From: Acidobacteriota bacterium
GTDB lineage: Bacteria; Acidobacteriota; UBA890; WLXD01
Assembly: GCA_963666055.2 (NCBI GenBank)
Contig: CAXWPH010000015.1
Coordinates: 1,152,001 to 1,216,000 of the forward strand
Direction of reading: 5' to 3'
DNA: 64,000 nt
In this document: positions 2,860 through 18,840 of the stretch, piece after piece
Position numbering within the stretch: position 1 is the stretch's first letter
Layout of the letters: every line of letters starts with the position of its first letter
Notes under the pieces: model-generated
The model's input: only the letters and a program-made list of their open reading frames with translations
Told to the model about the DNA's origin: nothing
The model's database searches: none
Program-made: the position numbers and the translations under genes

Positions 2860-3189
2860 ATGGGTGGTGCAGGGTTCCTGGGAGAATTCGAGCATCTGGT
2901 ATTGCTCGCGGTAATGCAGCTCGGCGAGGCGGCGCATGCGATCAGCGTGCGACGCCGCATTGAGAAGCGCGCCGGACGATCGGTGGCGCGCGGTGCGCTG
3001 TACGGGACGCTGGCGCGGCTGGAAGACAAAGGCTTCCTCGACTGGCAGGTCGAGGAGGCGACTCCGGCGCGTGGCGGGATTCCACGGCGACGCTTCACTG
3101 TCACAGACGACGGGCTGGGCGCGCTGCGGATGTCGCAGCGGGCGATCGCTAGCCTCTCGGAAGGCCTCGAGAGCGCGCTCGAGCAATGA
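2860..3189 (+). CDS. PadR-family transcriptional regulator (acidobacterial, ADOP-associated type)
   Basis: [12 protein letters not shown]...[14 protein letters not shown]...RRRFTVT winged-helix pattern; ATGA overlap with the downstream permease. Confidence 0.9.
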
Positions 3190-5898
3190 GCTCACGACGT
3201 CGCCCAGCCGACGCTTCACCGCCGCGGATTGCCGAGGCTTGGCTGCTGCGGCGACTCGCCGCATCTCCGGCGGCGCAGGTCGTCATCGGCGATCTTCGCG
3301 AGGAGTACGTTGAGCTGCGCGCACGTCGCTCGCCGCTTGTCGCCGGGCTCTGGTACTGGGTGCAAGCGTTGCGCCTGGCGTTCTCGCGTCGCGCCGGCGC
3401 ACTGCGCCGTCCTCCTGTCACTCGAACCGGATCCCCGCATCGGTTGGGCTACGTCGAGATGATCACGTCGATTCTGCAAGACCTACGCTACGGACTGCGA
3501 GCGCTGGCCAAGAGCCCGGCGTTCACCATTGCCGCGGTGTTGACGCTGGCGCTGGGAATTGGTGCCAACGCTGCCATCTTCAGCATCGTCAACGCGGTGC
3601 TACTCCGGCCGCTGCCGTTCCCGCAGCCCGATCGGCTGGTGCGGATCTACTTCGGCCTATCCGGAGCGTGACTCGTGGGGCGGCAACGTCTCGCCCGACG
3701 ATCTGCGCGACTGGCGCGAGCAAGGCTCCTCGTTCGAGCAGATCTCCGCTTTCCCCTACGTCTCGCTCGCCGGCTTCGTGTTGACGGGTGGAGATCGGCC
3801 CGAGTCGTTACAGGCGCACTTCGTTGAGGAGATGTTCTTCGAGACGCTCGGTACGCCGCCGTTGCGCGGGCGCACGCTGCAGCTCGGCGACCACGTGGAC
3901 GGCAAGAATGCCGTCGCCGTGCTGTCGTATCGGAGCTGGCAGGGGCGTTTCCACGGCGATGTATCCATCGTTGGGGCGACGATTACGCTGAGCGACAGCC
4001 CCTTCACAGTCATCGGTATCATGCCGCCGGGCTTCGATTACCCGTCGGCAGATGCGGAGATCTGGGTGCCCTTGTCGCTCATTCCGGAGAGGGGCATCCC
4101 CCGCCAGCGCGGCGTTCGCTTCCTCGCCGCGGTCGGCCGTATGAGTCCTGGAGTGAGCCTCGCGGCGGCGCAGGCCGAGCTCACGACGGTGGCGCGCCGC
4201 CTGGCGGCCGAGTACCCGGAATCCAACGATCAGCTCACCGAGGTGCGGCTCGTGCCGCTGCATGATCAACTGACGGCGGGCGCCCGAGCCGGCTTGCTGA
4301 TGCTTCTCGGTGCGGTGGGCACGGTGCTGCTGATCTGCTGCGCTAATGTTGCCAACCTGATGCTAGTGTGAGCGCAGGCGCGCACGCGGGAGTTCGCCGT
4401 GCGCGCGGCGCTGGGCGCCAGTCGAACTCGCCTGGCCCGGCAGCTGCTGACCGAGGCGGTGCTGCTAGCGGCGGTCGGGGGCGCGGCTGGCACGGCACTG
4501 GGCTCACTGGTGCTGCGTTAGCTCATAGCCGTGGCGCCGGCGGCGGTTCCGCGGCTCCGTGAGGTGGGTCTCGATCCGGCGACGCTGCTTTTTACCTCGC
4601 TGGTGTCCTTGGCTACGGGGGCGCTGTTCGGACTCGCCCCCGCCTGGCGCGCCTGGCGGGGCGATCTTCAGGCCGAGATCCGCATGGCGGGCGGCAGCGG
4701 CGCGGAGACCCGCGGCCACAGCCGCATGCGCGGCGCGCTCATCGTCGCCGAAGCGGCGCTCGTGGTGGTTCTGGCGATCGGAGCCGGCCTACTGCTCCGT
4801 AGCCTCGACAATCTGCTCAGCGTCGACCCGGGTTTCGACGCCGAGCGTGCTGTATCGATGCAGGTAACGGTGCCCGGCTACAAGTACACCACCAGCGAGG
4901 AGATCCAGCAGTTCTTCCTCGAGGTGCTCGAGAGCGTTCGCCAGGTTCCCGGCGTAGCCGCCGCGGGTCTCGTGCGACCCATGCCGTTGGCACCAGATAC
5001 GTTCCAGGGGGAGGACTTCCGATTTACCGTGGTCGGGCAACCGCCGCCGGTCGAGGGGCAGGAGCCGGCCGCGGTGCTGCGCTTCGCGTCCGCGGGTGTC
5101 TTCGAAGCCATGGGGGTACCGTGGATCGCCGGGCGTGACTTCACCGCGGCCGATGATCGCTCACTTGACCGGTTGATGGGCGTTATCAACCAGAGTATGG
5201 CCGACCGATTCTGGCCCGACGAGAACCCGGTCGGGCAGCGGATTGCCAACGACTACATCGAGCTCGAGGTCATCGGCGTGGTCGGCGACGTGCGCCAGTC
5301 CAGTCTGGACGAGGAGATCCGCAACGTTGTCTACACCTCGCTCCGGCAAGTCACACGAGTCGGCATGACGCTTGTCGTGCGCACCGAAAGCGATCCTGTG
5401 CCGCTGCTACCGAACATTCACGCGGCAATCTGGGAGATCAACTCGGATCAGACGATCGAGGGTGTTACGACGCTCGGCGGGCTCGTGGGGCGGTCGGTGT
5501 CGCAACCGCGGTTCTCGGCGTTGCTCGTCGGCCTGTTCGCCGGCCTGGCGCTGCTCCTCGCGGGCATTGGCGTATACGGGGTGGTGTCAAACGCGGTGGC
5601 GCAACGGGCTCGCGAGATCGGCATCCGAATGGCGCTCGGTGCTCGCGGTATCGACGTCGCGCGCTGGGTAGTTGGACAGGGTATGGCATGGGTCGGTCTC
5701 GGGATCGTCCTCGGCCTGGTGGCTTCGATGGGCCTCAGCCGGCTGGTTTCGTCGCTGCTGTTCGGTGTGGGCGCCATGGATCCGCTGACCTATTCCGGAG
5801 CAGCGGCGGTTCTCGGCACCGTCGCCCTGATCGCGAGCCTGCTGCCTGCCCGGCGCGCTATCGCCTTGGATCCGGTCAAGTCTCTGCGAGCCGAATAG
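3186..5898 (+). pseudogene. ADOP-family duplicated ABC permease (MacB/FtsX-like), disrupted
   Basis: [31 protein letters not shown] and EIGIRMALGA motifs are collinear, but there is a frameshift near 3651, an in-frame TGA at 4369-4371 (where Arg is expected) and an in-frame TAG at 4519-4521. Confidence 0.85.
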
Positions 5899-5920
5899 GA
5901 GAGGCGTTGCTAGTAGTTTT

Positions 5921-8536
5921 TCAGGGCGCCTGTTGGCCCCCTGAGCCGTCGTCATTTCGAGCGTGGCTGAGACCGAACTCAACACGCTGAACGAGCCCGG
6001 CGGCGCCGATCGTGACCGTCGTTGGCCAGCAGTTGACGCCGTAGCGTCCGGAGATCGATCTGTCGGGGTCGGGCACGAGGCGAAGCGTCAGCTCATGCTC
6101 TCGCGCGAAACGGGTCACCTGCTCGGGATCCTCTCCGTCGCCGACCGCGAGAATCACCGGTGCGTCCTCGTCGGCCCGATCGTGCAGGGCTTGCAGCTGC
6201 CGTAACTGAGCCAGGCAAGGTGCCGAGAACCCTTTCCAGAAGCTCAGCAATACGGAGCGGCCGCGCAGCCGTCGCAGGGCAATCGGTTGGTCCCCGATGG
6301 GCTCGATCAGAAAGTCCAGGGCGCGGCGCCCCGGCGTCACCGTCAGGCGCAGCGGGCTGGAGGTCGGTGGTGGTCCGGTGATCGCGTGCTCCTTGAGTGC
6401 CCGTGCCAGCGCGTCTGTATCCAGCGCGCCCGCCTTGTCCCACACGAACTCACCATGGGCGTTCATCAGGAACGTCGCCGGTGCCGTCTCGACGCCGAAG
6501 GCGCGCGACCAGGCGCCGCCGTAGTCCTCGGTGATCTCCAGGGAGGCGGTGAAGCCGCGACCGGGGGAGCCGAGCCCGCGTTCCACCGCCGAGCGCGACT
6601 CGCCAAAGGACCCCGCCGGCATCACCAGGTACATTGCCACGTGAGTATCCTCGCCGACCCCCGCGAAGGCTTCCCCGAGGCCCTCCAGCGGCGCCGACCC
6701 AGGCGCGGCGAAGTGAAACAGCACGTTGGGGCCGGAGCTACCGGCGCGCTTCGAATGGGCGAGCACGTTGACGTGTGCCGTGATCGCCTCGTCGAGGATG
6801 AGTTCGGGCGGCGGATCGGGCAGCCAAATGGGCGCCATGATGGTCTCCCACCACGACGGCATCGCCCACACGAACTCCTTGCCGTTGACTGAGCAGGTCT
6901 CTCCGCCGTCGACGGCCTGCTCGAACCCCGTCTCATGCACCTGCGTGCCGACGACGCGCAGGCAGAGCTTCTTGCCGGTGGGCACGTCCTTCTCGAGCAG
7001 CACGAAACGGTGCTCGTCGGCGTGTACTTTGGTCTCGGCCTCCCACGGGATCCAGGCGTGTCCTTCGGTCCAGGACCATTCGAACCGGTCCGTCGCACCG
7101 GCCGGCACCCAGCTCTGGAGCGCCGTGTAGCCGTCATCGTTGGCTCGCGGCGTGAACTCCACGAACACGTCGGAGCGCCCACCCGCCGTGATATCGCCGT
7201 GCAGGACGATACCGTCGGGAACGATATCGAGCGACGAGTAGCGTGCGGTGGCGCCGTTGTCGAACGACTTGACGATGTCCTGCATCGACACACCGTCGAT
7301 CAGCGCCTCTTTCATCGCCGTCTCCGCCTGGGCGAGCGCCGGGCCTTGCTGTGCCTGTACCGCGCTCTTGACGGTGCCGATGGCCGCCGACGGCAGGCCG
7401 GACACAGAAAGGCCGCCGGCTTGCAACGACACGGTCTGGGTCGCCGCATCCAGGGAGGCGGTGATCGTCTCGGTGATGGTGAAGTTGTAGTTCGGAAGTA
7501 TCGACCCGGTGACCGCGCTTCCCTGCACCGTCACCTTGATCGAGCCCGTCTGCCAGGTAAGAGACACGCTCGAGATCGAGACGTTGTAGGTCACGGTGAA
7601 AACCCACCAGCCGATCTCGTAGGAGACGCTGAACCCGTTGATCGTGTCCTTGAAGCTTTGCATCTCCGACTCGACGTGCTCACGCCTCACGGCCACCCCG
7701 TACTCGTCGCCGGAGCTCAGGAACAAGTTGTTGACGCTGCCGAGCGCGCTCGCCGCCGGCGCCTCACCCCCCAGAGTCACAGGCAGCGCCACGACCTGAT
7801 TCGAGCCGCTTCCGAGCGGCTTGAAGTTGTCGAAAGGAATGTCGTCCGGTACTTCCACGGTGGTCGGCTCGAAGCCGCTCTTCACGACCTTGCGGACCTG
7901 CGTGGTGATCTTGCCAGCGTCCTCGGAGCTGAGGGTGCCGCTGGCGGGGTGAAACTCGATGTCGTTGTCAGAGTCGATGCTGGCCTCGACGACCGTCTTG
8001 CCCTCCACGAGCTTCGTCCCGATGGCAAAGGTGATCCGCACTTCGCCGTGGATGGGATCGGGGAGCGACAGGGTGTCAGGATCCGGAATGTAGTTGGCGC
8101 GCACCGGGTAATGGGCGGTCACGCTGGAGCCGACCCCGCCGGAAAAGCTGAGCTTCGGCGCGCCGAGCTGCACCTGCGCCAGCCCGCGTACCGTTCCCGG
8201 CGTGGTCATCGCGTCCTGCAGATCGTTGATCTCCTTCCACAGGTCGTCCTTGGCTCTGGACGCCCCTGGAGGCTGTTTCTTGGAGCTGCCGCCCGGTTGC
8301 CCGCCGCCACCGGAGCCAAAGCTGCCGAAGATGGAGCTCGAGTTCCAGTCGATGAACTTCGCCAGCAGGACGGATAGCTTGGTGGGGTCGCCGACCCGCA
8401 GCGCGAAGCTGTGCGGGATGCTCGGCGACACCTCGTCGTGGGCGCCGTTCTGATGCACGCTCGCCAGGATCGTGTTGACAGTCTTGACGCGGACGAGTGC
8501 AACGGCGTCGAAGTCGCCCGTGAGTCCGTTGGCCAT
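5921..8536 (-). CDS. 871-aa multidomain protein: beta-rich N-terminal region plus two C-terminal thioredoxin/redoxin-like folds (SxxC variant)
   Basis: C-terminal TlpA/AhpC-like pattern LRGRSVLLSFWKGFSAPC...YGVNCWPTTVTI; a preceding degenerate copy AFGVETAPATFLMNAHGEFVW; GAGG RBS; no signal peptide. Confidence 0.8.
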   Translation of the reverse strand: MANGLTGDFDAVALVRVKTVNTILASVHQNGAHDEVSPSIPHSFALRVGDPTKLSVLLAKFIDWNSSSIFGSFGSGGGGQPGGSSKKQPPGASRAKDDLWKEINDLQDAMTTPGTVRGLAQVQLGAPKLSFSGGVGSSVTAHYPVRANYIPDPDTLSLPDPIHGEVRITFAIGTKLVEGKTVVEASIDSDNDIEFHPASGTLSSEDAGKITTQVRKVVKSGFEPTTVEVPDDIPFDNFKPLGSGSNQVVALPVTLGGEAPAASALGSVNNLFLSSGDEYGVAVRREHVESEMQSFKDTINGFSVSYEIGWWVFTVTYNVSISSVSLTWQTGSIKVTVQGSAVTGSILPNYNFTITETITASLDAATQTVSLQAGGLSVSGLPSAAIGTVKSAVQAQQGPALAQAETAMKEALIDGVSMQDIVKSFDNGATARYSSLDIVPDGIVLHGDITAGGRSDVFVEFTPRANDDGYTALQSWVPAGATDRFEWSWTEGHAWIPWEAETKVHADEHRFVLLEKDVPTGKKLCLRVVGTQVHETGFEQAVDGGETCSVNGKEFVWAMPSWWETIMAPIWLPDPPPELILDEAITAHVNVLAHSKRAGSSGPNVLFHFAAPGSAPLEGLGEAFAGVGEDTHVAMYLVMPAGSFGESRSAVERGLGSPGRGFTASLEITEDYGGAWSRAFGVETAPATFLMNAHGEFVWDKAGALDTDALARALKEHAITGPPPTSSPLRLTVTPGRRALDFLIEPIGDQPIALRRLRGRSVLLSFWKGFSAPCLAQLRQLQALHDRADEDAPVILAVGDGEDPEQVTRFAREHELTLRLVPDPDRSISGRYGVNCWPTTVTIGAAGLVQRVEFGLSHARNDDGSGGQQAP

Positions 8537-8583
8537 AGGATTACCTCGTTTTTCGGGCTGCCGGCCTTAGCCGGTACGCGGGC

Positions 8584-8982
8584 TCAGATGAGCGTGAAGC
8601 CGGACGTCAATTCGAACTGCGGGGAGGGCTCGCACTCGATCTTCGGCTTGGACAAGGAGACAGGGGGGGCACCCGGCGGGGTGAAACTACAGGAGCAGGT
8701 GACGGTACCCGCGATATTGATTCCTGCACTGCCGACGTATGCAGGGTTCGCGGAGGCTGCTGTGACCGGCGTGTTTTTAGGAGACGACAGCGTGGTGGAA
8801 CCTTCCTCGTCCACCTTTAGCGAGACGTTGATGGTGCTCACCGTGCCGAAGATTGTGCCGGGAAAGCGGAGATCGATCGGTGAGGCCCCTCCCGCTCTGT
8901 CCAGAACGCACCCCACGTATCCGAACAACAGGATGATGGGCAACAGCACCAATGGAATGAGCAGCACGAACCAGTCGACCAT
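8584..8982 (-). CDS. Putative lipoprotein (132 aa) with atypical signal peptide
   Basis: ATG 8982 after GGAG. MVDWFVLLIPLVLLPIILLFGYVG-C hydrophobic stretch ends in a lipobox-like Cys25; beta-rich mature part with CxC and one further Cys; lies next to lgt and lspA. Confidence 0.7.
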   Translation of the reverse strand: MVDWFVLLIPLVLLPIILLFGYVGCVLDRAGGASPIDLRFPGTIFGTVSTINVSLKVDEEGSTTLSSPKNTPVTAASANPAYVGSAGINIAGTVTCSCSFTPPGAPPVSLSKPKIECEPSPQFELTSGFTLI

Positions 8983-8999
8983 CGGCCGGACTCCAGAGC

Positions 9000-9743
9000 T
9001 CAGTGGGTGTCGATCCACCCGGTGAACAAGACCGCCAGAGCGATGAGCGCAAAGGCGACGGAAAGCGCGCGCTGCACATTGAGCGCGCCGAAGTGTTCTT
9101 GGGTGGCGCGGGTGGACTGCAGCGCGTATCGACCGAGCATGTAGCCGACGGTGGCAGTCCAGAACACGGCCCCTGGGAAGAGGCGCGCACGCCACATCAT
9201 GACCGCGCCGAGCAGCAAAACGACCGCAAGCCCCGCCTCGAGTAGCTGGCTGGGAATGCGTCGTTGCCACCTGCCCGCCTCATCGGGGAGGTACAACGCG
9301 AGCGGCCCAGCGCTCGCTCGTCCGCAGCAACAGCCGTGCAGCAGACAGCCGATCCTCGTGAACACCATGGTGATGAGGATCGTGAAGATCGTCACGTCCC
9401 AGAACTGGCCGAAGGGGACCCGTAGTACCGCCAGCAGGGGAACGGACCCGGCGATGATCAGCGGCAGCCCGCCTAGCAACGACATGCCCCCTTCCGTTCG
9501 CCGCCAAATACGCTTCGGTTCGCTGCGGTACTGGTGCCATTCAGTAGCGACGAACAACAGGCGCGCGCCGATCAGCGCCGGGGCGATCAACAGCAGCATC
9601 ACCACCAGGACGCGCGCGCTATCGAGGCCGGCCAGGTTTGCGGCATAGTTCCCTGCGGTCATTCCAACCACCAGGCCCAGGTACAGCATGGCCGGGTAGC
9701 TGTGTATCCGGATATCACGCCAGGTGAACAGCACGCGTCGCAT
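9000..9743 (-). CDS. lgt: Prolipoprotein diacylglyceryl transferase family protein (divergent Lgt)
   Basis: HSY, GARL, GGMSLLGG, RIGCLLHGCCCG and PSQLLEA motifs in Lgt order; multiple TM helices; start taken at ATG 9743. Confidence 0.85.
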   Translation of the reverse strand: MRRVLFTWRDIRIHSYPAMLYLGLVVGMTAGNYAANLAGLDSARVLVVMLLLIAPALIGARLLFVATEWHQYRSEPKRIWRRTEGGMSLLGGLPLIIAGSVPLLAVLRVPFGQFWDVTIFTILITMVFTRIGCLLHGCCCGRASAGPLALYLPDEAGRWQRRIPSQLLEAGLAVVLLLGAVMMWRARLFPGAVFWTATVGYMLGRYALQSTRATQEHFGALNVQRALSVAFALIALAVLFTGWIDTH

Positions 9744-9778
9744 CGGCAACCTAACTAGAAAGGGCGTTGGTTCCCTTC

Positions 9779-10216
9779 TTACGAGGGTGTGACGAACATG
9801 GCGAGTCGCCAAAGTGTGGCGCCACCACCCAGGACGATGGCCAGATCTGCCAGGTTGAAAACCGGCCAGATGCGCAAGTCGATGAAGTCGACGACCGCGC
9901 CTCTGAGCGCAATGTCCATGAGGTTGCTGGCGGCGCCACCCAGGGCAGCCCCAATCCCCAGCTGCGCTGCGGGGGCTCGCAGAGCCGCGAGTTGATCGAC
10001 CAGCACCGCGATTCCCAACAGCGAGACCACCCACAGGATGCACAACATGCGCCTGCTACCAAGGAGGCCGTGCCCAAGTCGCGAATTCCGTAGCGGCCGG
10101 ATCCGTGGCGCCCACCAGGCGTCCGAGCCACAACCCGGGCCGGCTCGGCGGATTACGAGCCGCTTGCTTTGTTGGTCGAGCGCCAGCACCACGCCAGCCG
10201 CTAGTAGCCAGATCAT
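9779..10216 (-). CDS. lspA: Signal peptidase II (lipoprotein signal peptidase)
   Basis: [21 protein letters not shown] and FNLAD motifs; both catalytic Asp positions present. Confidence 0.9.
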
Positions 10217-10335
10217 GAGTCACAATCCTCATGGTTACCGGGGCGCGCAGTCTATGGCGGTGCCTCGCGGCGCGTCAAAGGAATGGCGATCGTACGGGTG
10301 CGGTAGGCGAGGGCCGCTAGTAGTAGGCTACGCCG

Positions 10336-11625
10336 ATGCGAAACACTCCTGATCGAAATGCGCTCGTCCCACGGGTCGTCGTTCTGTTGGTTGCGTCCGC
10401 ATTGGTGCTGTCGTGCGGCGGGGCGGAGGTCCCACAACCAGGCACTGCCTGGGGACAGTTCCGCGGTCCGAACCGTGACGGCGTGGCGCCGGACTTCTCG
10501 GGGCCGGATGAATGGCCCGATGCTCCCTCGGCAGTTTGGAATACGAACGTCGGCGCTGGCTACGCGTCGCCGATAACGGACGGTACGGCGGTCTATATGC
10601 ACAGTCGCGTCGACCAGCGCGAGGTGGTCTCGGCGCTCGATTTTGCCACCGGCGACCTCGTGTGGAGTGACCAGTACGACGCTCCTACGACGAAGGCGCC
10701 GGAGTTCGCGGCGAGCGAGGGGGAGGGGCCCTATGCGACACCGGTACTGCATGAGGGTGGTCTGTATACCTTCGGAGTTCACGGCATCGCTTCGGCGTAC
10801 GACGCCGAGTCGGGTGATCTGCGCTGGCGGCGTGATTTTGGTGATCGCATCGTCGAGGTCGAACGATCCTGCGGTGCCTCGTCGTCGCCGCTGATCGTCG
10901 ACGATCGGGTCGTCCTGCAGATCGGTGACGACGACTCCGGCGAGGTGCTTGCGTTGAGCCTCGAGAGCGGCGAGACGGTGTGGGCCTGGACCGGCCCTGC
11001 GGCGGGCAATGCTTCGCCGGTGCTGGCGACGATCGACAGCGTTCGGCAGATCATCACGATGACCGATGAGGCTGCTGTGGCGTTCGACGCGGCCGATGGC
11101 AAGCTCCTCTGGAGGCACCCCTTGCAGGGGGTGCCGGGATCGTGCTCGACGAACATCCCGTCGCCCGTCGTCGCTGAGCAGGTGGTGATCATTGCCGGGA
11201 TCCAGCACGGGACGGAGGCCGTCGCACCGATGAACGGCGCCGGCGGCTGGACAGTGGACACCGTATGGAAGAACGACGAGATCAAGCCCTTCTGGAGTAA
11301 CTTCGTGCTCGAGGGCGCCGAGCTGTTCGGTGTTTCCGGCCAGCGGAAGGGTCAGCTGTTCGCACTCGACCCAGCTACCGGGGAAGCACTTTGGACGACC
11401 GACGGGCGTGCGGGCGAAAATGGCTCGGTGCTGGCGGCCGGCGACTACGTCTTCTTCGTCATGAACGAGGGGGACCTCCACGTTGCGCGCCGCACGAGGC
11501 CGGGCCTCGAGCTCATCGCCGAGTACACCATTGCCGACGCCGCGGTCTGGGCTTACCCGCTTATCCACGACGGCGACCTGCTGGTGAAGGCCGGCGACAC
11601 GCTGACACGCTGGTCGTTCGACTAG
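10336..11625 (+). CDS. PQQ-binding-like (BamB-type) beta-propeller lipoprotein
   Basis: LVLSC lipobox, WGQFRGPNRDG, repeated A.D..TG...W and SSP motifs. Confidence 0.85.
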   Translation: MRNTPDRNALVPRVVVLLVASALVLSCGGAEVPQPGTAWGQFRGPNRDGVAPDFSGPDEWPDAPSAVWNTNVGAGYASPITDGTAVYMHSRVDQREVVSALDFATGDLVWSDQYDAPTTKAPEFAASEGEGPYATPVLHEGGLYTFGVHGIASAYDAESGDLRWRRDFGDRIVEVERSCGASSSPLIVDDRVVLQIGDDDSGEVLALSLESGETVWAWTGPAAGNASPVLATIDSVRQIITMTDEAAVAFDAADGKLLWRHPLQGVPGSCSTNIPSPVVAEQVVIIAGIQHGTEAVAPMNGAGGWTVDTVWKNDEIKPFWSNFVLEGAELFGVSGQRKGQLFALDPATGEALWTTDGRAGENGSVLAAGDYVFFVMNEGDLHVARRTRPGLELIAEYTIADAAVWAYPLIHDGDLLVKAGDTLTRWSFD

Positions 11626-11643
11626 CGGCTCGCGATCGTCGCC

Positions 11644-12354
11644 TCAGCCGCCGGCGCGCTCGAGGGATTCCTGCAACCAATCGGATCCGGCCTTCGACCC
11701 CACGGCGCGGGCGAGGAACCCCGTTGCGTTGGCTACCGCGAAGCTGATGCCGCGCACATTGCGCTCTGGGGGCACCCCGGGGATCGGCCGTGGTAGCGGC
11801 GACGCCCGCAGCGTCAGGCCGGCGCCGGGCGCAGCACTGTCTACGATGATCTCGTCGCGGGCACACTCAGCGTCGGCGACGACGCCGACGACCTCGGGCA
11901 GGCTTCCCGGCCACCAGCGCACGGCGCGGTGACTCCGTGCGGAGACCACCAGCAGGCCTGCGTCGCGAGCCCGGAGCACGGCGCCGCGCAGCAGCTCGGC
12001 ATGCTCGCGACGGGGCGTGCCGAGGCTGAGGTTGGCGATCTGCAGGCGTTGCGTTGCGGCCCAGTCGATGGCGCGGGCCAGGTTGGCGGCGCTGGTCGAC
12101 AACGAGGTCTCGAACACCTTCACAACGTGCAGCTCCGCACCGGGCGCCTTTTCCTGGATTGCCGCCGCCACGGCGGTTCCGTGGCCGAGTCGGTCGAGCA
12201 CGTCATCGTGTTCGACGCCGCCTGGGTCAATCGCCACACCGGACGCATACGCTCTGATATGTGGGTTGTCGGTGTTGATGCCGCTGTCGATGATCGCTAC
12301 TCGGACACCGTCTCCGTTGCTGTCAAACGGAGGCTCGTCGAGGCGCCACCTCAC
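11644..12354 (-). CDS. qhpE: Subtilisin-like S8 protease, QHNDH gamma-subunit leader peptidase
   Basis: IIDSG, HGTAVA and GISFA triad motifs; short 236-aa form; GTGA overlap with qhpF. Confidence 0.85.
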   Translation of the reverse strand: MRWRLDEPPFDSNGDGVRVAIIDSGINTDNPHIRAYASGVAIDPGGVEHDDVLDRLGHGTAVAAAIQEKAPGAELHVVKVFETSLSTSAANLARAIDWAATQRLQIANLSLGTPRREHAELLRGAVLRARDAGLLVVSARSHRAVRWWPGSLPEVVGVVADAECARDEIIVDSAAPGAGLTLRASPLPRPIPGVPPERNVRGISFAVANATGFLARAVGSKAGSDWLQESLERAGG

Positions 12355-14147
12355 GTGAGAGAGCGGTCTTGCGGGGGCGCCGCATCGTCGACCGGCTTGG
12401 CGGCCGACCGTTCGACGTCGGTTCCGAACAGTGCCGAGAACGCCCCTGCTCTTGCGGCCAGGGTCTCGGGTGCACCCTGTTCGACGATACGCGCGCCGTC
12501 CACTACCACCACACGGTCTGCACGGCGGGCCATCTCGTAGCGGTGCGAGATCAGCAGTGTGGTACGTCCGCGCATGATCGCCTCGTAGCTGTCGATGACG
12601 TGCCGCTCCGATACTGGATCGAGCGATGCGGTGGCCTCGTCCAGCACCAGCACCGCCGGATCGGCGAGAAACGCGCGAGCGATGGCAATGCGCTGACGCT
12701 CGCCGGCCGATATGGCCGTGCCGCGCTCACCGACCACTGTGTCGTAGCCGTCGGGTAGGCCGTCGATAAACGCCGCGATGCCCGCTGATCGAGCCGCGTC
12801 GCGCACCTGATCGTCGCTGGCGTCGGGCCGCGCGTAGCGGATGTTCTCCGCGATGGAGGTGTTGAACAGGAACGGCTCCTGCTCCACCGCCACGACGTGG
12901 CGGCGCACGTCGTCGAGACGAAGATCGCGTAGCCGGTGGCCATCGAGGCGCACGTCTCCCTCATCAGGGTCGAGATGGCGCAGCAGCAGGTCGACGACGG
13001 TCGACTTGCCACCGCCGCTCGGTCCGACGATGGCGACCACCTCGCCGGGCCTCACCGACAGCGTCACGTCGTCGAGCACCGCGCCACCACGGTCGAACGT
13101 GAAGCTCACCCCTTCGAGCTCGACCTCACCGCGCGCCTCACGTAGAGCAATGGCGTCCTCACGCTCGGTCACCTCGATCGGCGTGTCGAGAATCTCGTGC
13201 ACGCGACCCAGCGATACCCGCGCCGTCGCCAGGTTCGTGTACAAGCCCATCAAGCCCTGCACCGGCGAGAGCAGCCGCGTTTGATAGGCCATGAACGCGA
13301 CCAGATCTCCCATCGTGATGGCGCCGGCGATAACCCGGCTGCCCCCATACAGGAAGACGACCGCAGTGCCGGCGGAGAGGATCAGCCCGGGCAGGCCGCC
13401 GGCCAGGTAGCTGAGTCGCCGCATGCCCATGAGCGCCTCGATGAAGGCATCGTTCTTGCCACGGAACCGACCCTCTTCCCGCAACTGTGCGTTGGACGAG
13501 ACGATGAGCTTCATGCCTTGCAGCGTCTCGATCAGAAAGCTGCCGATGTCGGCGCTGCGCTCGCGCATCGTCAGTACCCTCGACTCGAGCCGCCGGCGAT
13601 AGTAGACCAGCGCCACCATGCTGATCGGCATCAGGATCACGCTCACCGCGAACAGCCGCGCGTCGAGCCAGATCATCACCGCCACGGTGCCAACGAGAAA
13701 CAGGATGTTGCCAACCCAGGCGAGTGCCGTTTCGGCGGCGATGCGCTGGATCTCACCGATATCGTTGTTGATACGCGACACGACGTCACCGAGCTTGGCA
13801 TGGGCGTAGAAGCGTGGTGACAGCCGCTGCATGTGGCGGTACAGATCGAGCCGCATGTCGAAGAGGATCTCGGCCGACACGCGTGTGTAGCGCAGTCCAC
13901 TGACCACGTTGATCGCGAAGCCCAGCAACGTGGCGATGCCGAACAGCGCGATGATGCGCACCAGCGCGCCCATGTTCTGTCCCAGGAGGGCGTTGTCGAC
14001 GAGGTCTTTAGACAGGTAGGGCACATAGAGCGACACCAGCGTGCTGGCGAAGCTGAGCACGATGACCAGAACCAGGCGATGCCAGTACGGCACCACGTAG
14101 GCCAACGCCCAACGGAGCTCGCCGCGGCGCGGCACCCGGGCGGTCAT
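12351..14147 (-). CDS. qhpF: ABC exporter (fused TMD-NBD) of the qhp cluster
   Basis: N-terminal TM domain; Walker A GPSGGGKST, signature ISAGERQR, Walker B LVLDEAT; cluster position. Confidence 0.85.
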   Translation of the reverse strand: MTARVPRRGELRWALAYVVPYWHRLVLVIVLSFASTLVSLYVPYLSKDLVDNALLGQNMGALVRIIALFGIATLLGFAINVVSGLRYTRVSAEILFDMRLDLYRHMQRLSPRFYAHAKLGDVVSRINNDIGEIQRIAAETALAWVGNILFLVGTVAVMIWLDARLFAVSVILMPISMVALVYYRRRLESRVLTMRERSADIGSFLIETLQGMKLIVSSNAQLREEGRFRGKNDAFIEALMGMRRLSYLAGGLPGLILSAGTAVVFLYGGSRVIAGAITMGDLVAFMAYQTRLLSPVQGLMGLYTNLATARVSLGRVHEILDTPIEVTEREDAIALREARGEVELEGVSFTFDRGGAVLDDVTLSVRPGEVVAIVGPSGGGKSTVVDLLLRHLDPDEGDVRLDGHRLRDLRLDDVRRHVVAVEQEPFLFNTSIAENIRYARPDASDDQVRDAARSAGIAAFIDGLPDGYDTVVGERGTAISAGERQRIAIARAFLADPAVLVLDEATASLDPVSERHVIDSYEAIMRGRTTLLISHRYEMARRADRVVVVDGARIVEQGAPETLAARAGAFSALFGTDVERSAAKPVDDAAPPQDRSLT

Positions 14148-14163
14148 GTCGAGGAGGCTGCTC

Positions 14164-15306
14164 TCAGGGGCGCCCGGAATCTGTTGCTGGAACCACGATC
14201 AGATCGGTGGTGGTATCGCCGTCTAGCGTCAGCGTACGCTGGTAGCGGTAGTCGGCGGCGCTGTAGATATCGACCGTGTTGCCGGCGTTGAATACGTATA
14301 GCAACTTGCCGTTCGAGCTCGGCATGACGCGCATGCGCGGACGCCCCTCAAAGGTCTGGCGGCTCTCTACTCGCCGACCTTCCAGGTCGAAGGTCCAGAA
14401 CTCGTAGTGGCCGATGCTCTGGAACAGGCCGTACGCCTTCTTGCCATCCGGGGCAAGCGAGAAGCTCACCCCCATGGACGGGCCAAGCGTGTAGTAGTCG
14501 ACGCTCTTGTCCGGCAGGTTGACCCGTGCCACCCCCATCAGACGCCTTCCGTTGATCGGATCGGTGGTGCGGAACAGCCCCGTGAAGAACCCGGGCTCGT
14601 CGTAGATGTTGGGGCTGATACCGAAGTTCAGCGCCCCCATCCCCGACTCCATCGGACGGGAGATCTCCCACGTGTCGACTTCCTCGAAGCTCTCGGTCTC
14701 GAGGATCGTCACCTCCTCGGTCATGATGTACAGCAGGTCGCCGTCGGGCGAGAACATCATCTGGCTGAACTCGCGTTCCACGCCGCCCGGCCAGGGGATA
14801 TCGCGCATGACCTCGCGCGTCTCGAGGTTGTACTGCTGCAACACCGGCGGTCCGATCTCGAAGCGATCAATGAGCTTCGTATCCGTGCTGGTGTGCAGAA
14901 TGAGGTACTCCTCGCTGGGATGGATGGCGACTCGCCAGATCCGCACCTTCGAGTTGTCGTGGCTCAGCGAGTGGACGTCGATGGACTCACGGCTGGCGAC
15001 ATCGAAGATCTCGATGTACTCGAAGTCCGCGCTGGTGGAATAGAGCCGCTGGCGATCGCGCGTCAGCTGCAGGTTACGAGGGATCCCCGCGGTGGCCTCG
15101 ATGCGGTCGACGACCGCCATCGTGGCCTCGTCGATGACCATGATGGCGTGTTCGTAGGTGCCGACGTACATCGTCGCGTTGCCGCCGCTGGGGTGCTGCT
15201 GCGCTGTCGCGCCGCCCAGCAAGAGGCCCAGAACACACAACGTGACGGCGCTCGACAAGACCACCCGCCGGCCAGCGCCGGCTGCGAAGACCCGCGTCGA
15301 GCTCAC
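14164..15306 (-). CDS. qhpB: Quinohemoprotein amine dehydrogenase beta subunit (beta-propeller)
   Basis: GTG 15306 overlaps the qhpC stop (GTGA); signal-like N-terminus; YVTN/WD-like repeats (FSPDGDLLY, LAPDGKKAY, SSNGKLLY); position after qhpC. Confidence 0.8.
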   Translation of the reverse strand: MSSTRVFAAGAGRRVVLSSAVTLCVLGLLLGGATAQQHPSGGNATMYVGTYEHAIMVIDEATMAVVDRIEATAGIPRNLQLTRDRQRLYSTSADFEYIEIFDVASRESIDVHSLSHDNSKVRIWRVAIHPSEEYLILHTSTDTKLIDRFEIGPPVLQQYNLETREVMRDIPWPGGVEREFSQMMFSPDGDLLYIMTEEVTILETESFEEVDTWEISRPMESGMGALNFGISPNIYDEPGFFTGLFRTTDPINGRRLMGVARVNLPDKSVDYYTLGPSMGVSFSLAPDGKKAYGLFQSIGHYEFWTFDLEGRRVESRQTFEGRPRMRVMPSSNGKLLYVFNAGNTVDIYSAADYRYQRTLTLDGDTTTDLIVVPATDSGRP

Positions 15307-15650
15307 GGGAAGATCAGGTCGATCTTGCGCCAATCCTTCTGTGCCGCGGCGCAGGTCTTTGTCCAATCGGGCGTGTAGTTGAGCTGGTCGGGTACCTGTG
15401 CCGGCCAGAAGCAGCCCAGGTAGCAATCGAACAGGTCGCGCTCCACTGGCGAACAAAGGCCCGCGGTCCCGCCGCTGCTGTCGACTTCCCAACCGGGCTG
15501 GAACACCAGCGAGCAGCCGAGCGGAATGTGTGGCTCGTCGGGTTGCTGCGGGACAGCTTGCCCTTGCGGGTCGCTCAAGGCCACCACATCGCGTGCCAGG
15601 TGCTGCTCGATGCGCCCGGCCTTCATGTTGACTGGCTTCAGGTGCTTCAT
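15303..15650 (-). CDS. qhpC: Quinohemoprotein amine dehydrogenase gamma subunit (CTQ precursor)
   Basis: Leader MKHLKPVN.KA...DVVA; core GC....PGWEVD...LC.P.E.DL..C...C.WPAQV.D...DWRK with the canonical cross-link spacing. Confidence 0.95.
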   Translation of the reverse strand: MKHLKPVNMKAGRIEQHLARDVVALSDPQGQAVPQQPDEPHIPLGCSLVFQPGWEVDSSGGTAGLCSPVERDLFDCYLGCFWPAQVPDQLNYTPDWTKTCAAAQKDWRKIDLIFP

Positions 15651-17098
15651 TGGTCCCTACCTTCGAAGATAGCGAGGTAGCCAGGATTGTGCTCGGCTAT
15701 TTCACCATAGACGCGCAAACAGGTGTCGGTCCAGGCGCGGATCCAGTCGCAATAGTGGAGGTTCGGTCCGCGGGTAGTCCCGTAGCGGGTGTGCGCCTCG
15801 TGGTAACAGCCCCCGGCGCATAGGGGTCGTGCCCAGCATTTCTGGCAATCGGTCTTGTCGTCGACGTGATGAGTCTCGAGGAAGTGCAGCTGCTGGCTGC
15901 GATCGATGCCGTCCTCGACGGTGCCGAGCTTGTGCTCATCGGATCCCGCGAAACGGTGGCAGAGCGCGACGTCGCCGCCGGTAGCCACGCCGAGCAGCCC
16001 GAGCCCGGCGCCACAGGGATAGGCCTTGCTTATGCCTTTGTGGATTTCCTCGATGGTGTCCTTGACGTTCGAGAAGCCGTGATGACGGTTCTCGAGCGCT
16101 GCCTCGAGAAACTCCTCGGCGAGCTCGTCGAAGCCTGAGAGCATGGTGTCGAAGCCGTTGTTACCGATCGCCCAGTCGCGACCCCATGACGTGGTGACGG
16201 GGGCGAATCCGACTTCCCTGAAGCCGATATCGTCGCGCAGGTGATGGTAGATACGCTTCACGTCCAGGTTGTTCTTGGTCAGCGTGACCCTGGCACCGAT
16301 CGGCCGCGTCGTATGGCGCTTCAGCAGCTCACGCACCTTGGGAACGATGATGTCGTAGGTACCGCCGCCCCCCTTGAAGACGCGAAGCTCGTCCTGCATC
16401 TCCTTGGGCCCGTCGATCGACACGGTGACACCGATCTCGTTTTCGGTGAGCCACTCGATAATGTCGGGTCGCAACAGGGTGGCGTTGGTGGTGAGGCTGA
16501 ACTCGATGCCCTTGCCGAGCTGCTCGGCGCGCTGGCGCGCGTAGCCAACTGTCTTCTTCAAGACGGGGAAGTTCATCAGCGTCTCACCGCCGAAGAACGT
16601 CAGGTGTACGGTCTCGATCTCGGCCGATTCCTCCAGCATGAAGTCGACGCTCTGTTGTGCCGTCTCCTCGCTCATGAACTTGGGCTGGCGACCGTTCTCG
16701 GTGTCGACGATCTTGTCGTCGCTGTACTCGTAGCAGTAGCCGCAGCTCAGATTGCACTGGTTGGTGACGTTCAGGACCAGCGTGGTCAGCGGGAACGGTG
16801 TCGGCGGCATCTGCTTGGGTAGCGGCTGCGGTGCGGCGCCGGCCTCGCCGACGGCGCGCACTTGCATGAGCTCGTTGACGCTGTGGTAGACGGCTTCCGG
16901 GTCGAAGCGCTCGGCGAGCTGGTCGACCAGCTCGGACGCCGCCATCGGCTTTTCGTCGAGACGCTCGAGGACCGCCGCTGACGTCTCGTCGAGACCGAAT
17001 ACCGCGGCACTGGGAACCATGTAGAGGAACTGCCGGCCGGCCGCCTCGAAGGCGTGGTACTCGCCCACCGACAGCGCTACTTCCGTACGCATGTTCAT
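15647..17098 (-). CDS. qhpD: Radical SAM/SPASM thioether-forming QHNDH maturase
   Basis: CNLSCGYC, FFGGETL, PCGAG, CHRF and CQKCWARPLCAGGCYH; ATGA overlaps with qhpA and qhpC. Confidence 0.95.
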   Translation of the reverse strand: MNMRTEVALSVGEYHAFEAAGRQFLYMVPSAAVFGLDETSAAVLERLDEKPMAASELVDQLAERFDPEAVYHSVNELMQVRAVGEAGAAPQPLPKQMPPTPFPLTTLVLNVTNQCNLSCGYCYEYSDDKIVDTENGRQPKFMSEETAQQSVDFMLEESAEIETVHLTFFGGETLMNFPVLKKTVGYARQRAEQLGKGIEFSLTTNATLLRPDIIEWLTENEIGVTVSIDGPKEMQDELRVFKGGGGTYDIIVPKVRELLKRHTTRPIGARVTLTKNNLDVKRIYHHLRDDIGFREVGFAPVTTSWGRDWAIGNNGFDTMLSGFDELAEEFLEAALENRHHGFSNVKDTIEEIHKGISKAYPCGAGLGLLGVATGGDVALCHRFAGSDEHKLGTVEDGIDRSQQLHFLETHHVDDKTDCQKCWARPLCAGGCYHEAHTRYGTTRGPNLHYCDWIRAWTDTCLRVYGEIAEHNPGYLAIFEGRDQ

Positions 17099-18840
17099 TC
17101 GCCTGCCTCCCATCCTCTCCAGTTGAGATAAAGCGGCACGGTCACCACAAGGTGCGATCGGCCGCGTAGCGGGTGCTCTTGTCCAATCTCGTCGTAGGCG
17201 GCCACCACCCAGACGTCGCCGATGTTATTGCGGTTGCCGACGCGCTCAGGGTTCGGTCCGTCGACCGCGGGGGTGAAGAGCCCATTGTCGTCGAGAGTAC
17301 CGACATACTCCAGGTCCTCGTCGTTGAACGTCGCGGCGTACTCCTCGAGGCTCCAGTCCACCTCGACGACGCCCAGGTCGAGGTCGTCTGCTGTTCCGGG
17401 CTCACCGTCGGGCCCGTTGGAAGTGCCGAAGGCCTCGAACTGCGCCAGTTGCTTGGGCGCGACCTCGCCGCCGAGACGCGCCATGCCCCATTCGGGCGAG
17501 ACGCGGATGGAGTCGACCTGTTCGTACACCACCAGGCCTTCCGGTCGGCTTATGTCGCGCACGAAGACATCGCGCAACCCGACCGCAGCGTCGTCGGCAG
17601 CGCTGGCGCGAACGCGAATCGCGCTGTCGCTCGCCTCGATTACCTCGGTGACCTCGACCCCTGGGCCGAGATCGATATCCGCTGTGGTCACATCGGCCGG
17701 CAGATTGGCGCCGAAGATCGTTACTTCGCTGGACCCACCGTCGCTGCGGAGCGCTACTGGGTAGACGCCCGCGATCAACGGAACGTCAGCACGGTACAGC
17801 GTCACGTCGATGCCGATCTCGTCGTACGCGCCGGTGAACCAGCGGCCTTCCATCGTGCGCCAGTCGCGCTCGACGAACATCACCTCACGTAGAGATCCCA
17901 TGAGGTTGCCTTCAGTGCTCGAGCGGCCGCGCCACTGGAAGCCGGTATAGACGATGGCCCGGCCGCTGCGTCGCCTGGTGATCCCGGTGCGCGGGTTGGT
18001 GAGCGCTGCCTCGGTGCGGAACTGGCTGTCGCTGTCGTTCACCGCGCTGATCTCGACCGTGCCATAGACCGGACCATGACCCGGCGAATGGCCGGCAACC
18101 GCCCAGCGGCCGGCGAGACGCGCCGGTCGACGGTTCGCCGACCATGCCGACCACTCGGGAGTGTCGAGCGGGAAGGCCTCGGAGAGGTGCGCGATCGCCT
18201 TGTCCATCGGATGTCCGGAGTCGGCGTCGTCTGCGGCGGGGCCAGATCGCTGCGTACGCCGGAACGCTTGAAAGTCAACGTACGGGAAGTAGCCGCGGTG
18301 CATGGCGATAAGCAGCCCCCACTCGTCCTTGGTGCGGCGCTCGGTGATCACCCGGCCCATCGAATGGCATTGGATGCAGGTCGTCTCGGTGTCGTCGTCG
18401 GCGGTGTAGTCGTGGTCGATCAGCCGCCGCTCAGCCTCGAAGGCGCCCGGCTTGGCCTCCTCGGGAGCCAGCCCGTGGTTGTCGGACAGGTAGCGCACGA
18501 TGTCGCGGGCCATGGCGGGATCGAGCTCGACCCCGTTGAGCATCACCATACGTCGCAGCGTCTGTTGCCATCCTTCAGGTGACTTACGGATGTAGGAGAT
18601 CCGCGTCATATGCCCGTCGTCGTCGACGGCGTGACAAGAGGCGCAGTTGGACACGGTAGCTTCGTCGGTGACCGGGATACCGGCGGCCTTCGAATCGTCG
18701 TCAGAGTCGTTCGAGGTGCCTTCCGACTGCAGTAGTGCGGCGCTCGAGAACGGCGGGGCGGCAAACCCCAGGCTCATGACGACGACAAGCGAAGCCAACA
18801 GGCGGATTCGCGCCGGCGGAAAAACTATTCCTCTGATCAT
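17095..18840 (-). CDS. qhpA: Quinohemoprotein amine dehydrogenase alpha subunit (diheme c)
   Basis: Signal peptide; CASCH and CIQCH heme motifs; RISYIRKSPEGW and GPNPER..NN.G conserved segments. Confidence 0.95.
   Translation of the reverse strand: MIRGIVFPPARIRLLASLVVVMSLGFAAPPFSSAALLQSEGTSNDSDDDSKAAGIPVTDEATVSNCASCHAVDDDGHMTRISYIRKSPEGWQQTLRRMVMLNGVELDPAMARDIVRYLSDNHGLAPEEAKPGAFEAERRLIDHDYTADDDTETTCIQCHSMGRVITERRTKDEWGLLIAMHRGYFPYVDFQAFRRTQRSGPAADDADSGHPMDKAIAHLSEAFPLDTPEWSAWSANRRPARLAGRWAVAGHSPGHGPVYGTVEISAVNDSDSQFRTEAALTNPRTGITRRRSGRAIVYTGFQWRGRSSTEGNLMGSLREVMFVERDWRTMEGRWFTGAYDEIGIDVTLYRADVPLIAGVYPVALRSDGGSSEVTIFGANLPADVTTADIDLGPGVEVTEVIEASDSAIRVRASAADDAAVGLRDVFVRDISRPEGLVVYEQVDSIRVSPEWGMARLGGEVAPKQLAQFEAFGTSNGPDGEPGTADDLDLGVVEVDWSLEEYAATFNDEDLEYVGTLDDNGLFTPAVDGPNPERVGNRNNIGDVWVVAAYDEIGQEHPLRGRSHLVVTVPLYLNWRGWEAGE

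Follow-up and report, generated by a model that had tools for sequence, protein, structure and literature searches.

Gene content of the locus

The stretch analysed here (the window) comprises 64,000 nucleotides of an Acidobacteriota bacterium genome (GenBank assembly GCA_963666055.2, contig CAXWPH010000015.1, positions 1,152,001 to 1,216,000) and carries a four-gene cassette that appears to encode an accessory lipoprotein-maturation system. On the minus strand, genes for an LspA-like protein, an Lgt-like protein, an atypical lipoprotein and a protein of 871 amino acids follow each other with intergenic gaps of 35, 17 and 47 bp. The cassette is flanked on one side by a convergent ABC-permease gene with its end at 5898 and on the other by a PQQ-type beta-propeller gene that is divergent and starts at 10336. 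This co-directional arrangement had been recognised in the initial annotation and is confirmed by the coordinates and by Pfam. The LspA (signal peptidase II) paralogue (145 amino acids, 9779..10216, minus strand) matches PF01252 (Peptidase_A8) with an E-value of 1e-19 and 71.4 bits (cut-off 25). The Lgt paralogue (247 amino acids from the ATG at 9743, 9000..9743, minus strand) matches PF01790 with an E-value of 9e-32 and 110.7 bits (curated cut-off 24.9). Against the TIGR00544 equivalog the same Lgt reaches 62.8 bits, which is under the cut-off of 118.9, and both cassette enzymes fall under the NCBIfam equivalog cut-offs. The third gene (8584..8982, minus strand) encodes the putative cognate prolipoprotein of 132 amino acids. 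Its atypical signal peptide (8908..8982, minus strand) ends in Cys25 (codon 8910-8908). The fourth gene (5921..8536, minus strand) encodes a leaderless protein of 871 amino acids with Pfam AhpC-TSA/Redoxin matches confined to residues 736-854 (AhpC-TSA at 736-851), and its predicted TULIP region (7187..8536, minus strand) is marked by BPI-like structure matches. Upstream of lspA there is one promoter-like site, which is at chance level (0.6 expected). Since two public runs from two studies, either of which may be the source of the window, carry positions 3000-13000 within one contig, the cassette does not represent a misassembly.

Matches to PF01790 and to PF01252 number exactly two each in the whole genome. 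The higher-scoring housekeeping pair is encoded as adjacent lspA-lgt genes at G000:C15:940-942.5 kb, about 220 kb away from the cassette, and the third gene of that locus is presumably a pseudouridine synthase. The separate housekeeping locus rules out that the cassette pair is the sole or housekeeping lgt/lspA, and the earlier suggestion of an accessory module with its own enzymes is supported. In the other cassette genomes at least two PF01790 matches were present in 37/37 (the second one fragmentary in three) and at least two PF01252 matches in 35/37, with one each in G020 and G025.

Charge distribution in the two membrane enzymes

In canonical Lgt the cytoplasmic side is cationic and the arms and head lie outside, and canonical LspA has both termini inside and its beta-cradle outside, according to the available text of PMC8689077. 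We expressed charge bias as the number of K+R on the canonical cytoplasmic loops minus the number on the canonical periplasmic loops, with long loops cut to 15 residues from either end. Cassette Lgts showed a mean bias of -10.5 that was negative in 34/34 copies (-10 for the window copy), whereas housekeeping Lgts (n=31, consisting of the 30 best hits from the same genomes and the window genome's own) had a mean of +6.0 and were positive in 29/31 (+8 for the window genome's own). The sole exceptions were two near-neutral Verrucomicrobiae copies at -1 and -3 (L060, L061). The same pattern was found for LspA, with a mean of -5.9 and negative values in 34/34 cassette copies (window copy -7) versus a mean of +3.2 in the housekeeping copies, of which 29/31 were positive and two were zero (window genome's own +4). 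All 13 loops (8 in Lgt, 5 in LspA) shift in the inverting direction, with one face losing and the other gaining K/R. Further homologues were negative in 117/117 cases, these being the best 120 of 588 listed minus the query and two over-long proteins.

Second-copy Lgts outside of cassettes keep the normal bias (6/6 at +8 to +10), six of six further cassette-type Lgts lie at -10 to -16, and 11 housekeeping Lgts with a CxxxGCC motif lie at +5 to +10. Total K+R content is similar in cassette and housekeeping enzymes (0.092 vs 0.078). An artefact of GC content or Arg-richness is ruled out by the same-genome controls. We regard these charge patterns as strong sequence evidence for inverted lipoprotein-maturation enzymes, and Lgt and LspA of the cassette are likely to be inverted in the membrane.

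Signal peptides and cognate lipoproteins

The substrate encoded in the window starts with an acidic n-region without K/R, which is followed by a hydrophobic stretch of about 20 residues with two Pro and by a YVG-C25 lipobox. After Cys25 there is a beta-rich domain of 107 amino acids with no Pfam match. Altogether, 48 signals of cassette loci follow the approximate consensus M-x-D/E-W, about 20 hydrophobic residues with prolines, and F/Y-x-G-C. K/R residues occur in the n-region of 0/48 cassette signals compared to 158/163 lipobox proteins of this genome, which were chosen without a charge filter, and the uncharged length is 23 in cassette signals and 16 in ordinary lipoproteins, with start-codon rules that differed between the two sets. 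D/E residues are present in the n-region of 35/48 signals. Further upstream starts would bring K/R into only one of the 48, and a Shine-Dalgarno-like motif is found at 36/48 chosen starts. A profile built from the signals of other loci scored the window gene at 45.8 bits and the next best place in the genome at 11.6 bits, and no further substrates were found in this genome by the signal profile. A single cognate substrate, as had been proposed earlier, is consistent with this one signal of cassette type; other loci have up to three.

Active-site residues

The window Lgt retains the equivalents of E. coli Y26, R143, G154, E202, Y235, R239 and R246 and shows the substitutions H103 to L, N146 to C, H196 to I and E243 to Q. 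Throughout the cassette Lgts, Y26, R143, G154, Y235, R239 and R246 are present in 31-34 of the 34 copies (with Lys at 143 counted); R239, R/K143 and E/D202 are conserved in 34/34, Y235 and R246 in 33/34. Position 103 is occupied by Y, F, L or Q and N146 is replaced by C. Housekeeping Lgts also deviate here, with H103 absent in 20/31 and N146 absent in 14/31, and ordinary Lgts may have H103 replaced by Y, W or F and N146 by C, with Leu at 103 not among the replacements given in the available part of PMC13251419. Both catalytic Asp residues, D110 and D124, are retained in the window LspA. The aspartates of the VVDF and FNxAD motifs are invariant in 34/34 cassette copies and align to positions 124 and 143 of P. 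aeruginosa LspA, which we take to be the catalytic ones. Ratios of nonsynonymous to synonymous substitution rates (dN/dS) of 0.10-0.47 in 9/9 pairwise gene comparisons from three locus pairs rule out decayed duplicates. Judged by their residues, the cassette enzymes are likely to be active.

Some changes in the active sites speak against an unchanged chemistry. H196 and Y201 are lost throughout the cassette Lgt clade, and this loss is specific to the clade; the window Lgt carries Leu instead of His103 and Gln instead of Glu243; and cassette LspAs show erosion of the N-x-G and D-R motifs. One might therefore consider that the inverted Lgt uses a different donor or mechanism or serves as scaffold only, and that LspA sets the substrate free in the cytoplasm, either without a lipid or with another modification. 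The variability at position 103, the E243 to Q exchange in some copies and the altered LspA motifs, which include SH..E for GN..D in one subclade, would fit such a reading. We nevertheless consider it improbable, since R143, E202, Y235, R239 and R246, which are said to bind the phosphatidylglycerol head group in the available text of PMC8689077, are kept. The signals end in Cys in 48/48 cases, although the search pattern required this residue. LspA normally requires a lipidated Cys, which also counts against this alternative.

The deviating LspA subclade (loci L011, L016, L018, L019, L020, L022, L024, L025, L036 and L049) reads S[HN]..E instead of GN..D and D-Y-V-C-L-R-F instead of D-F-I-D, and it goes together with FN3-type or unassigned substrates.

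The large partner protein

The protein of 871 amino acids consists of a predicted double TULIP (residues ~1-450), a beta-rich domain (~460-550) that contains the conserved pair Cys525/Cys548, and two thioredoxin-like folds (~600-720 and ~730-860). An AlphaFold2 model from 14 sequences (predicted local distance difference test score, pLDDT, 73.5) gave Foldseek matches to OrfX3, P47, LBP, CETP and BPI with E-values of 1e-7 to 1e-5, and additionally to OrfX2 and to thioredoxins. A single-sequence model was used for the C-terminal TULIP only because its mean pLDDT was 38. With residues 285-427 of this low-confidence model, a VIA search of 48,161 chains returned TULIP proteins in all of the top seven places, among them BPI (Z 9.6, root-mean-square deviation (rmsd) 3.4, 130 aligned residues), SPLUNC1 (Z 8.6) and CETP (Z 8.5); Der f 7 was also matched. 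VIA matches of the full-length model were filled by thioredoxins. For the first, N-terminal TULIP, secondary structure and Foldseek alignments of 397-561 columns fit, at an rmsd of 10-20 Å and without a score for this domain alone, and it is from the secondary structure and these whole-length matches that we infer the domain. The N-terminal half had no sequence-level assignment in Pfam or among the best 60 PDB sequence matches.

The protein had previously been described as a large redoxin-fold protein. This description holds for the C-terminal third only, and the protein is predicted to be mainly of the TULIP lipid-binding type. The thioredoxin fold is present (ResA, Z 17) but its motif is SAPC, Cys774 occurs in 54/111 homologues, and conserved Cys residues are missing from the first thioredoxin-like domain. 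With thioredoxin cysteines in about half of the family, redox catalysis is not the shared function, and a redox enzyme as the core function can be ruled out. Of 160 homologues the 111 with at least 820 amino acids were inspected for their N-termini. All of them start directly with the first strand of the fold, as recognised by pattern in 81 cases and by visual inspection in 30. A Tat motif is absent from all of them, and eight contain a 19-residue window with a hydropathy above 1.8. A role of the TULIP protein as carrier of the lipoprotein appears reasonably likely.

Orientation in the membrane

Several observations weigh against an inverted orientation. Charge is the only basis for the topology, and the loop borders were drawn manually on the housekeeping sequences of this genome. 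Since each enzyme clade arose once, the counts of 34/34 reflect maintenance of the bias over deep divergence and do not represent 34 independent events, and p-values derived from them are too strong. The 15 residues after the lipobox Cys are not basic (0.58 K/R vs 2.0 D/E), as in ordinary lipoproteins, and with a C-terminal flank that is not basic the N-out orientation of the substrate rests only on the missing basic n-region. Among the 28 of 48 substrates that were scanned for domains, usually extracellular domains were found, namely LamG in 10/28 and FN3 in 8/28 (two FN3 just under the cut-off), with no domain in 10/28; some substrates have Pro/Thr linkers, and one subgroup carries a four-Cys mini-domain directly after the lipobox. 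In the large protein Cys525 is kept in 110/111 and Cys548 in 109/111 homologues, and disulfides would favour an oxidising compartment. Cassette Lgts keep a CxxxGCC motif in 34/34 copies, for which a disulfide has been suggested in Leptospira Lgt (PMC13251419, as far as available).

These extracellular-type domains, Cys-rich modules, conserved Cys pairs and acidic mature N-termini would fit a normal topology, in which dedicated Lgt and LspA of conventional orientation mature an exported lipoprotein of the lectin or adhesin type, the unusual signal of which is handled poorly by the housekeeping enzymes. The basic outer face would then bind acidic partners and the large protein would exit by an unknown route. 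A precedent is given by plasmid-borne accessory lgt genes linked to lipoproteins (PMC13251419, available text). This scenario accounts for the K/R gained at the outer face; it does not account for the concurrent loss from all 7 canonical cytoplasmic loops and tails of two unrelated folds. It leaves unexplained why none of 48 signals has a basic n-region and why the partner never has a signal peptide, and other second-copy Lgts retain the normal bias. We therefore regard a normal topology as unlikely.

Conservation of the cassette

A search of GTDB with a profile of the large protein identified 40 loci in 37 genomes that belong, by record title, to Gamma-, Alpha- and Deltaproteobacteria, Acidobacteriota, Actinomycetota, Verrucomicrobia, Planctomycetota, Gemmatimonadales, Rokubacteria and Methylomirabilota. 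One carrier available in culture is Mycolicibacterium xanthum Y57 (L037). At 33/40 loci both enzymes are encoded within 10 kb of the large gene, which is far beyond chance. Of the remaining seven, three are in genomes that also have a complete locus, and in four genomes the enzymes are found next to a copy of the large gene on a different contig, so that the enzymes are linked in 37/37 genomes. A protein with the shared signal is present at 38/40 loci, and an open reading frame of the same lipoprotein cluster at the other two. The linkage of the large protein and the lipoprotein to lgt/lspA, the absence of which would have refuted the initial annotation, is thus present in every genome checked. 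In metagenomes, both enzymes were found at 39/77 and the signal at 52/77 loci; these loci derive from the best 80 of 200 confirmed matches, and many of the contigs are short. The N-terminal 560 residues of the large protein match 507 clusters at 50% identity, so the cassette family is not rare.

Gene order and orientation differ between loci, and the only further gene families conserved nearby are common regulators and permeases. Phylogenies of both enzymes had been suggested at the outset, and in these the cassette copies each form a clade of their own. Cassette Lgts are monophyletic with respect to the housekeeping Lgts of the same genomes (100/100), and cassette LspAs are monophyletic with an SH-like approximate likelihood ratio test (SH-aLRT) support of 96. 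The distances of the three gene trees correlate (rho 0.55-0.84). Frame breaks in the large gene at a few loci (L014, L026, L029, G866) are possibly sequencing errors.

Variant loci differ with respect to the large gene. G660 has an lspA-lgt-lipoprotein locus without a match to the TULIP part, which indicates that the large protein is not always needed. The TULIP gene is unlinked in G717 and is swapped for a gene encoding a 160-amino-acid coiled-coil protein at a second locus of G029 and G383, and no exporter is conserved near the cassette. Such loci, together with the missing export gene, would agree with inverted and active enzymes that keep the substrate anchored for good at the inner leaflet, where it would be a sensor or scaffold facing the cytoplasm, while the TULIP protein shuttles free lipids or docks by protein contact and is not a lipoprotein carrier. 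Bdellovibrio TipA, which binds free lipids and has a small beta-sandwich partner (bioRxiv 2025.09.09.675085, available part), would be in line with this. On the other hand, LamG and FN3 domains, Pro/Thr linkers and Cys-rich modules fit a role outside, and 0/4 cassette proteins match the PADLOC defence models (library of 2023), so that we hold a permanent inner-leaflet anchor to be very improbable.

The leaderless coiled-coil protein has a C-terminal CCPPP...PC.YE.C motif (L198:7504-7986 in G029, L219:6634-7113 in G383, and L115), and its gene lies between a cassette-type lgt and LamG lipoproteins at loci without a TULIP gene. There are 74 homologues of this protein; it lacks a confident match in Pfam and occurs in 1/38 cassette genomes searched.

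Insertion site and neighbouring genes

The cassette is a 4.4-kb insertion between flanking genes that directly adjoin each other in the congeners G039, G040 and G041. Its boundaries are marked by 9-bp direct repeats GCTAGTAGT on the plus strand at 5909..5917 (left) and 10316..10324 (right), and the empty site in G039 has a single near-identical copy of GCTAGTAGT. No terminal inverted repeats were seen at the insertion ends by eye. A search for the large gene in 40 relatives, including four congeners, found no copy, and the gene is present in 2/400 genomes sampled from the phylum. The GC content of the cassette is the same as that of its flanks, and the cassette had no match in viral contigs (IMG/VR) or plasmids (PLSDB). 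Taken together, the cassette is a real, mobile, cross-phylum unit.

At 2504-2785 the window contains a non-coding element of 280 bp, the ends of which are inverted (CTAGCAGG...CCTGCTAG) and which resembles a miniature inverted-repeat transposable element. It has 125 near-full-length BLAST hits in the genome, a number that may be double-counted due to the palindrome, and many in congeners; a CTAG core is common to this element and the flanking repeat of the cassette. The MacB/FtsX-like permease gene (3186-5898) seems to be split over frames, and run X3 is one base shorter at 3651. Upstream of it there is a gene that we assume to be PadR-like. On the cassette's opposite side, the region 11644-18840 encodes an S8 peptidase, an ABC exporter, a beta-propeller, a small Cys/Asp-rich protein, a radical SAM protein and a diheme protein. 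It presumably resembles a quinohemoprotein amine dehydrogenase (qhp) cluster, with the S8 domain alone having been tested.

A possible mechanism and its implications

The dedicated paralogues are co-inherited with the substrate and the TULIP protein. As the two enzymes and the substrate, whose sidedness has to agree, all show the sign opposite to that of the canonical pathway and the fourth protein never has an export signal, a pathway turned inside out would be the simplest account. The charges suggest that the long, acidic and K/R-free signal inserts with its N-terminus out, so that Cys and folded domain stay inside. The Cys would then be beyond the reach of the housekeeping Lgt/LspA, whose active sites face the wrong way, which would make dedicated enzymes necessary. 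Inverted Lgt would move diacylglyceryl from phosphatidylglycerol of the inner leaflet to the Cys, and inverted LspA would cleave ahead of the modified Cys. In what is the weakest step, the TULIP tube might shield the acyl chains, similar to a cytoplasmic LolA or LBP, and form a soluble carrier-lipoprotein complex. We consider it more likely that this complex finally leaves the cell, through lysis or along a non-Sec route, than that it stays inside, because the substrates carry lectin and adhesion domains. Since the cysteines and domains suggest that the final location is oxidising, we favour later release of the complex and leave a minor share to a normal topology.

Overall, we give somewhat better than even chances to the reading that inverted Lgt and LspA lipidate and cleave their own prolipoprotein on the cytoplasmic face and that the TULIP protein binds the anchor. 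The broader proposal is that of a mobile mirror-image pathway across phyla, with diacylglyceryl-Cys lipoproteins in the cytoplasmic leaflet, a cytoplasmic double-TULIP protein as LolA-like carrier and a concerted inversion of both enzymes and the substrate, which we put only slightly above even. Lipoprotein maturation is taught as a post-translocational process at the outer face of the cytoplasmic membrane (PMC13721041 and PMC8689077, available text). If our interpretation is true, the cassette would overturn this rule and represent the first bacterial route to cytoplasm-facing lipoproteins. It would further be an instance from nature in which two unrelated enzymes flipped jointly with their substrate, and thus a direct evolutionary test of the positive-inside rule. 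As a tool, its two enzymes would form an orthogonal set with which proteins could be tethered to the cytoplasmic leaflet, and for a bacterial TULIP protein it would supply a candidate ligand.

Comparison with known systems

That the arrangement could not be matched to a described system had been stated initially, and our literature searches, which mostly covered listings and abstracts of freely accessible papers, likewise found no description of the cassette or of inverted Lgt/LspA. The available parts of PMC6791001 and PMC13721041 mention nothing like the cassette; further members may be present in Table S2 and Fig. S8 of PMC13251419. Extra copies of the enzymes are known, namely lspA3/4 in the myxovirescin cluster of Myxococcus, a second lgt in Streptomyces and M. 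smegmatis (PMC8689077, PMC13251419), and a plasmid lgt with conjugation lipoproteins (PMC13251419). Like the cassette enzymes, these paralogues are accessory to housekeeping copies, and some of them are mobile and lie close to genes for lipoproteins. As far as the available text of both papers goes, they serve antibiotic self-resistance or plasmid conjugation, and neither a paired unit of lspA, lgt, substrate and TULIP protein nor an inversion is described.

The 871-amino-acid protein shares its BPI-like fold, as predicted here, with the double-TULIP proteins OrfX2, OrfX3 and P47, with TipA-TipB and with eukaryotic BPI, LBP and CETP. OrfX and P47 are leaderless like the large protein of the cassette. 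It differs from these TULIPs by the absence of a sequence-level match, by its fused beta domain and two thioredoxin folds, by its linkage to lipidation enzymes and by the lack of a conserved toxin gene nearby. TipA, like the cassette protein, is operon-paired with a small beta-sandwich protein; TipA-TipB is a bacterial double TULIP without lipidation enzymes in the part of bioRxiv 2025.09.09.675085 that was available. A further parallel is the Skillet-1 Lipocone, in which a predicted dedicated lipidating enzyme is coupled to a lipobox-like protein whose domains are of the concanavalin, Ig or jelly-roll type; it has an unrelated fold, a Ser instead of a Cys lipobox and neither LspA nor TULIP protein, and no inversion is described (PMC12419801, available text).

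Compared to the canonical pathway (Lgt PF01790, E. coli 5AZB; LspA PF01252, 5DIR/6RYO), the cassette uses the same enzyme families with most of the active-site residues and a hydrophobic signal that ends in G-C. The charge bias is reversed in both enzymes, and the signal is acidic, K/R-free and longer, with an aromatic residue at -3. Whereas the canonical pathway serves the whole lipoproteome, the cassette would serve one to three cognate substrates, and it includes a leaderless TULIP partner and has no conserved lnt or lol gene nearby. By its sequences, the system thus departs from two defining features of the canonical pathway, the outward-facing charge pattern and the basic signal.

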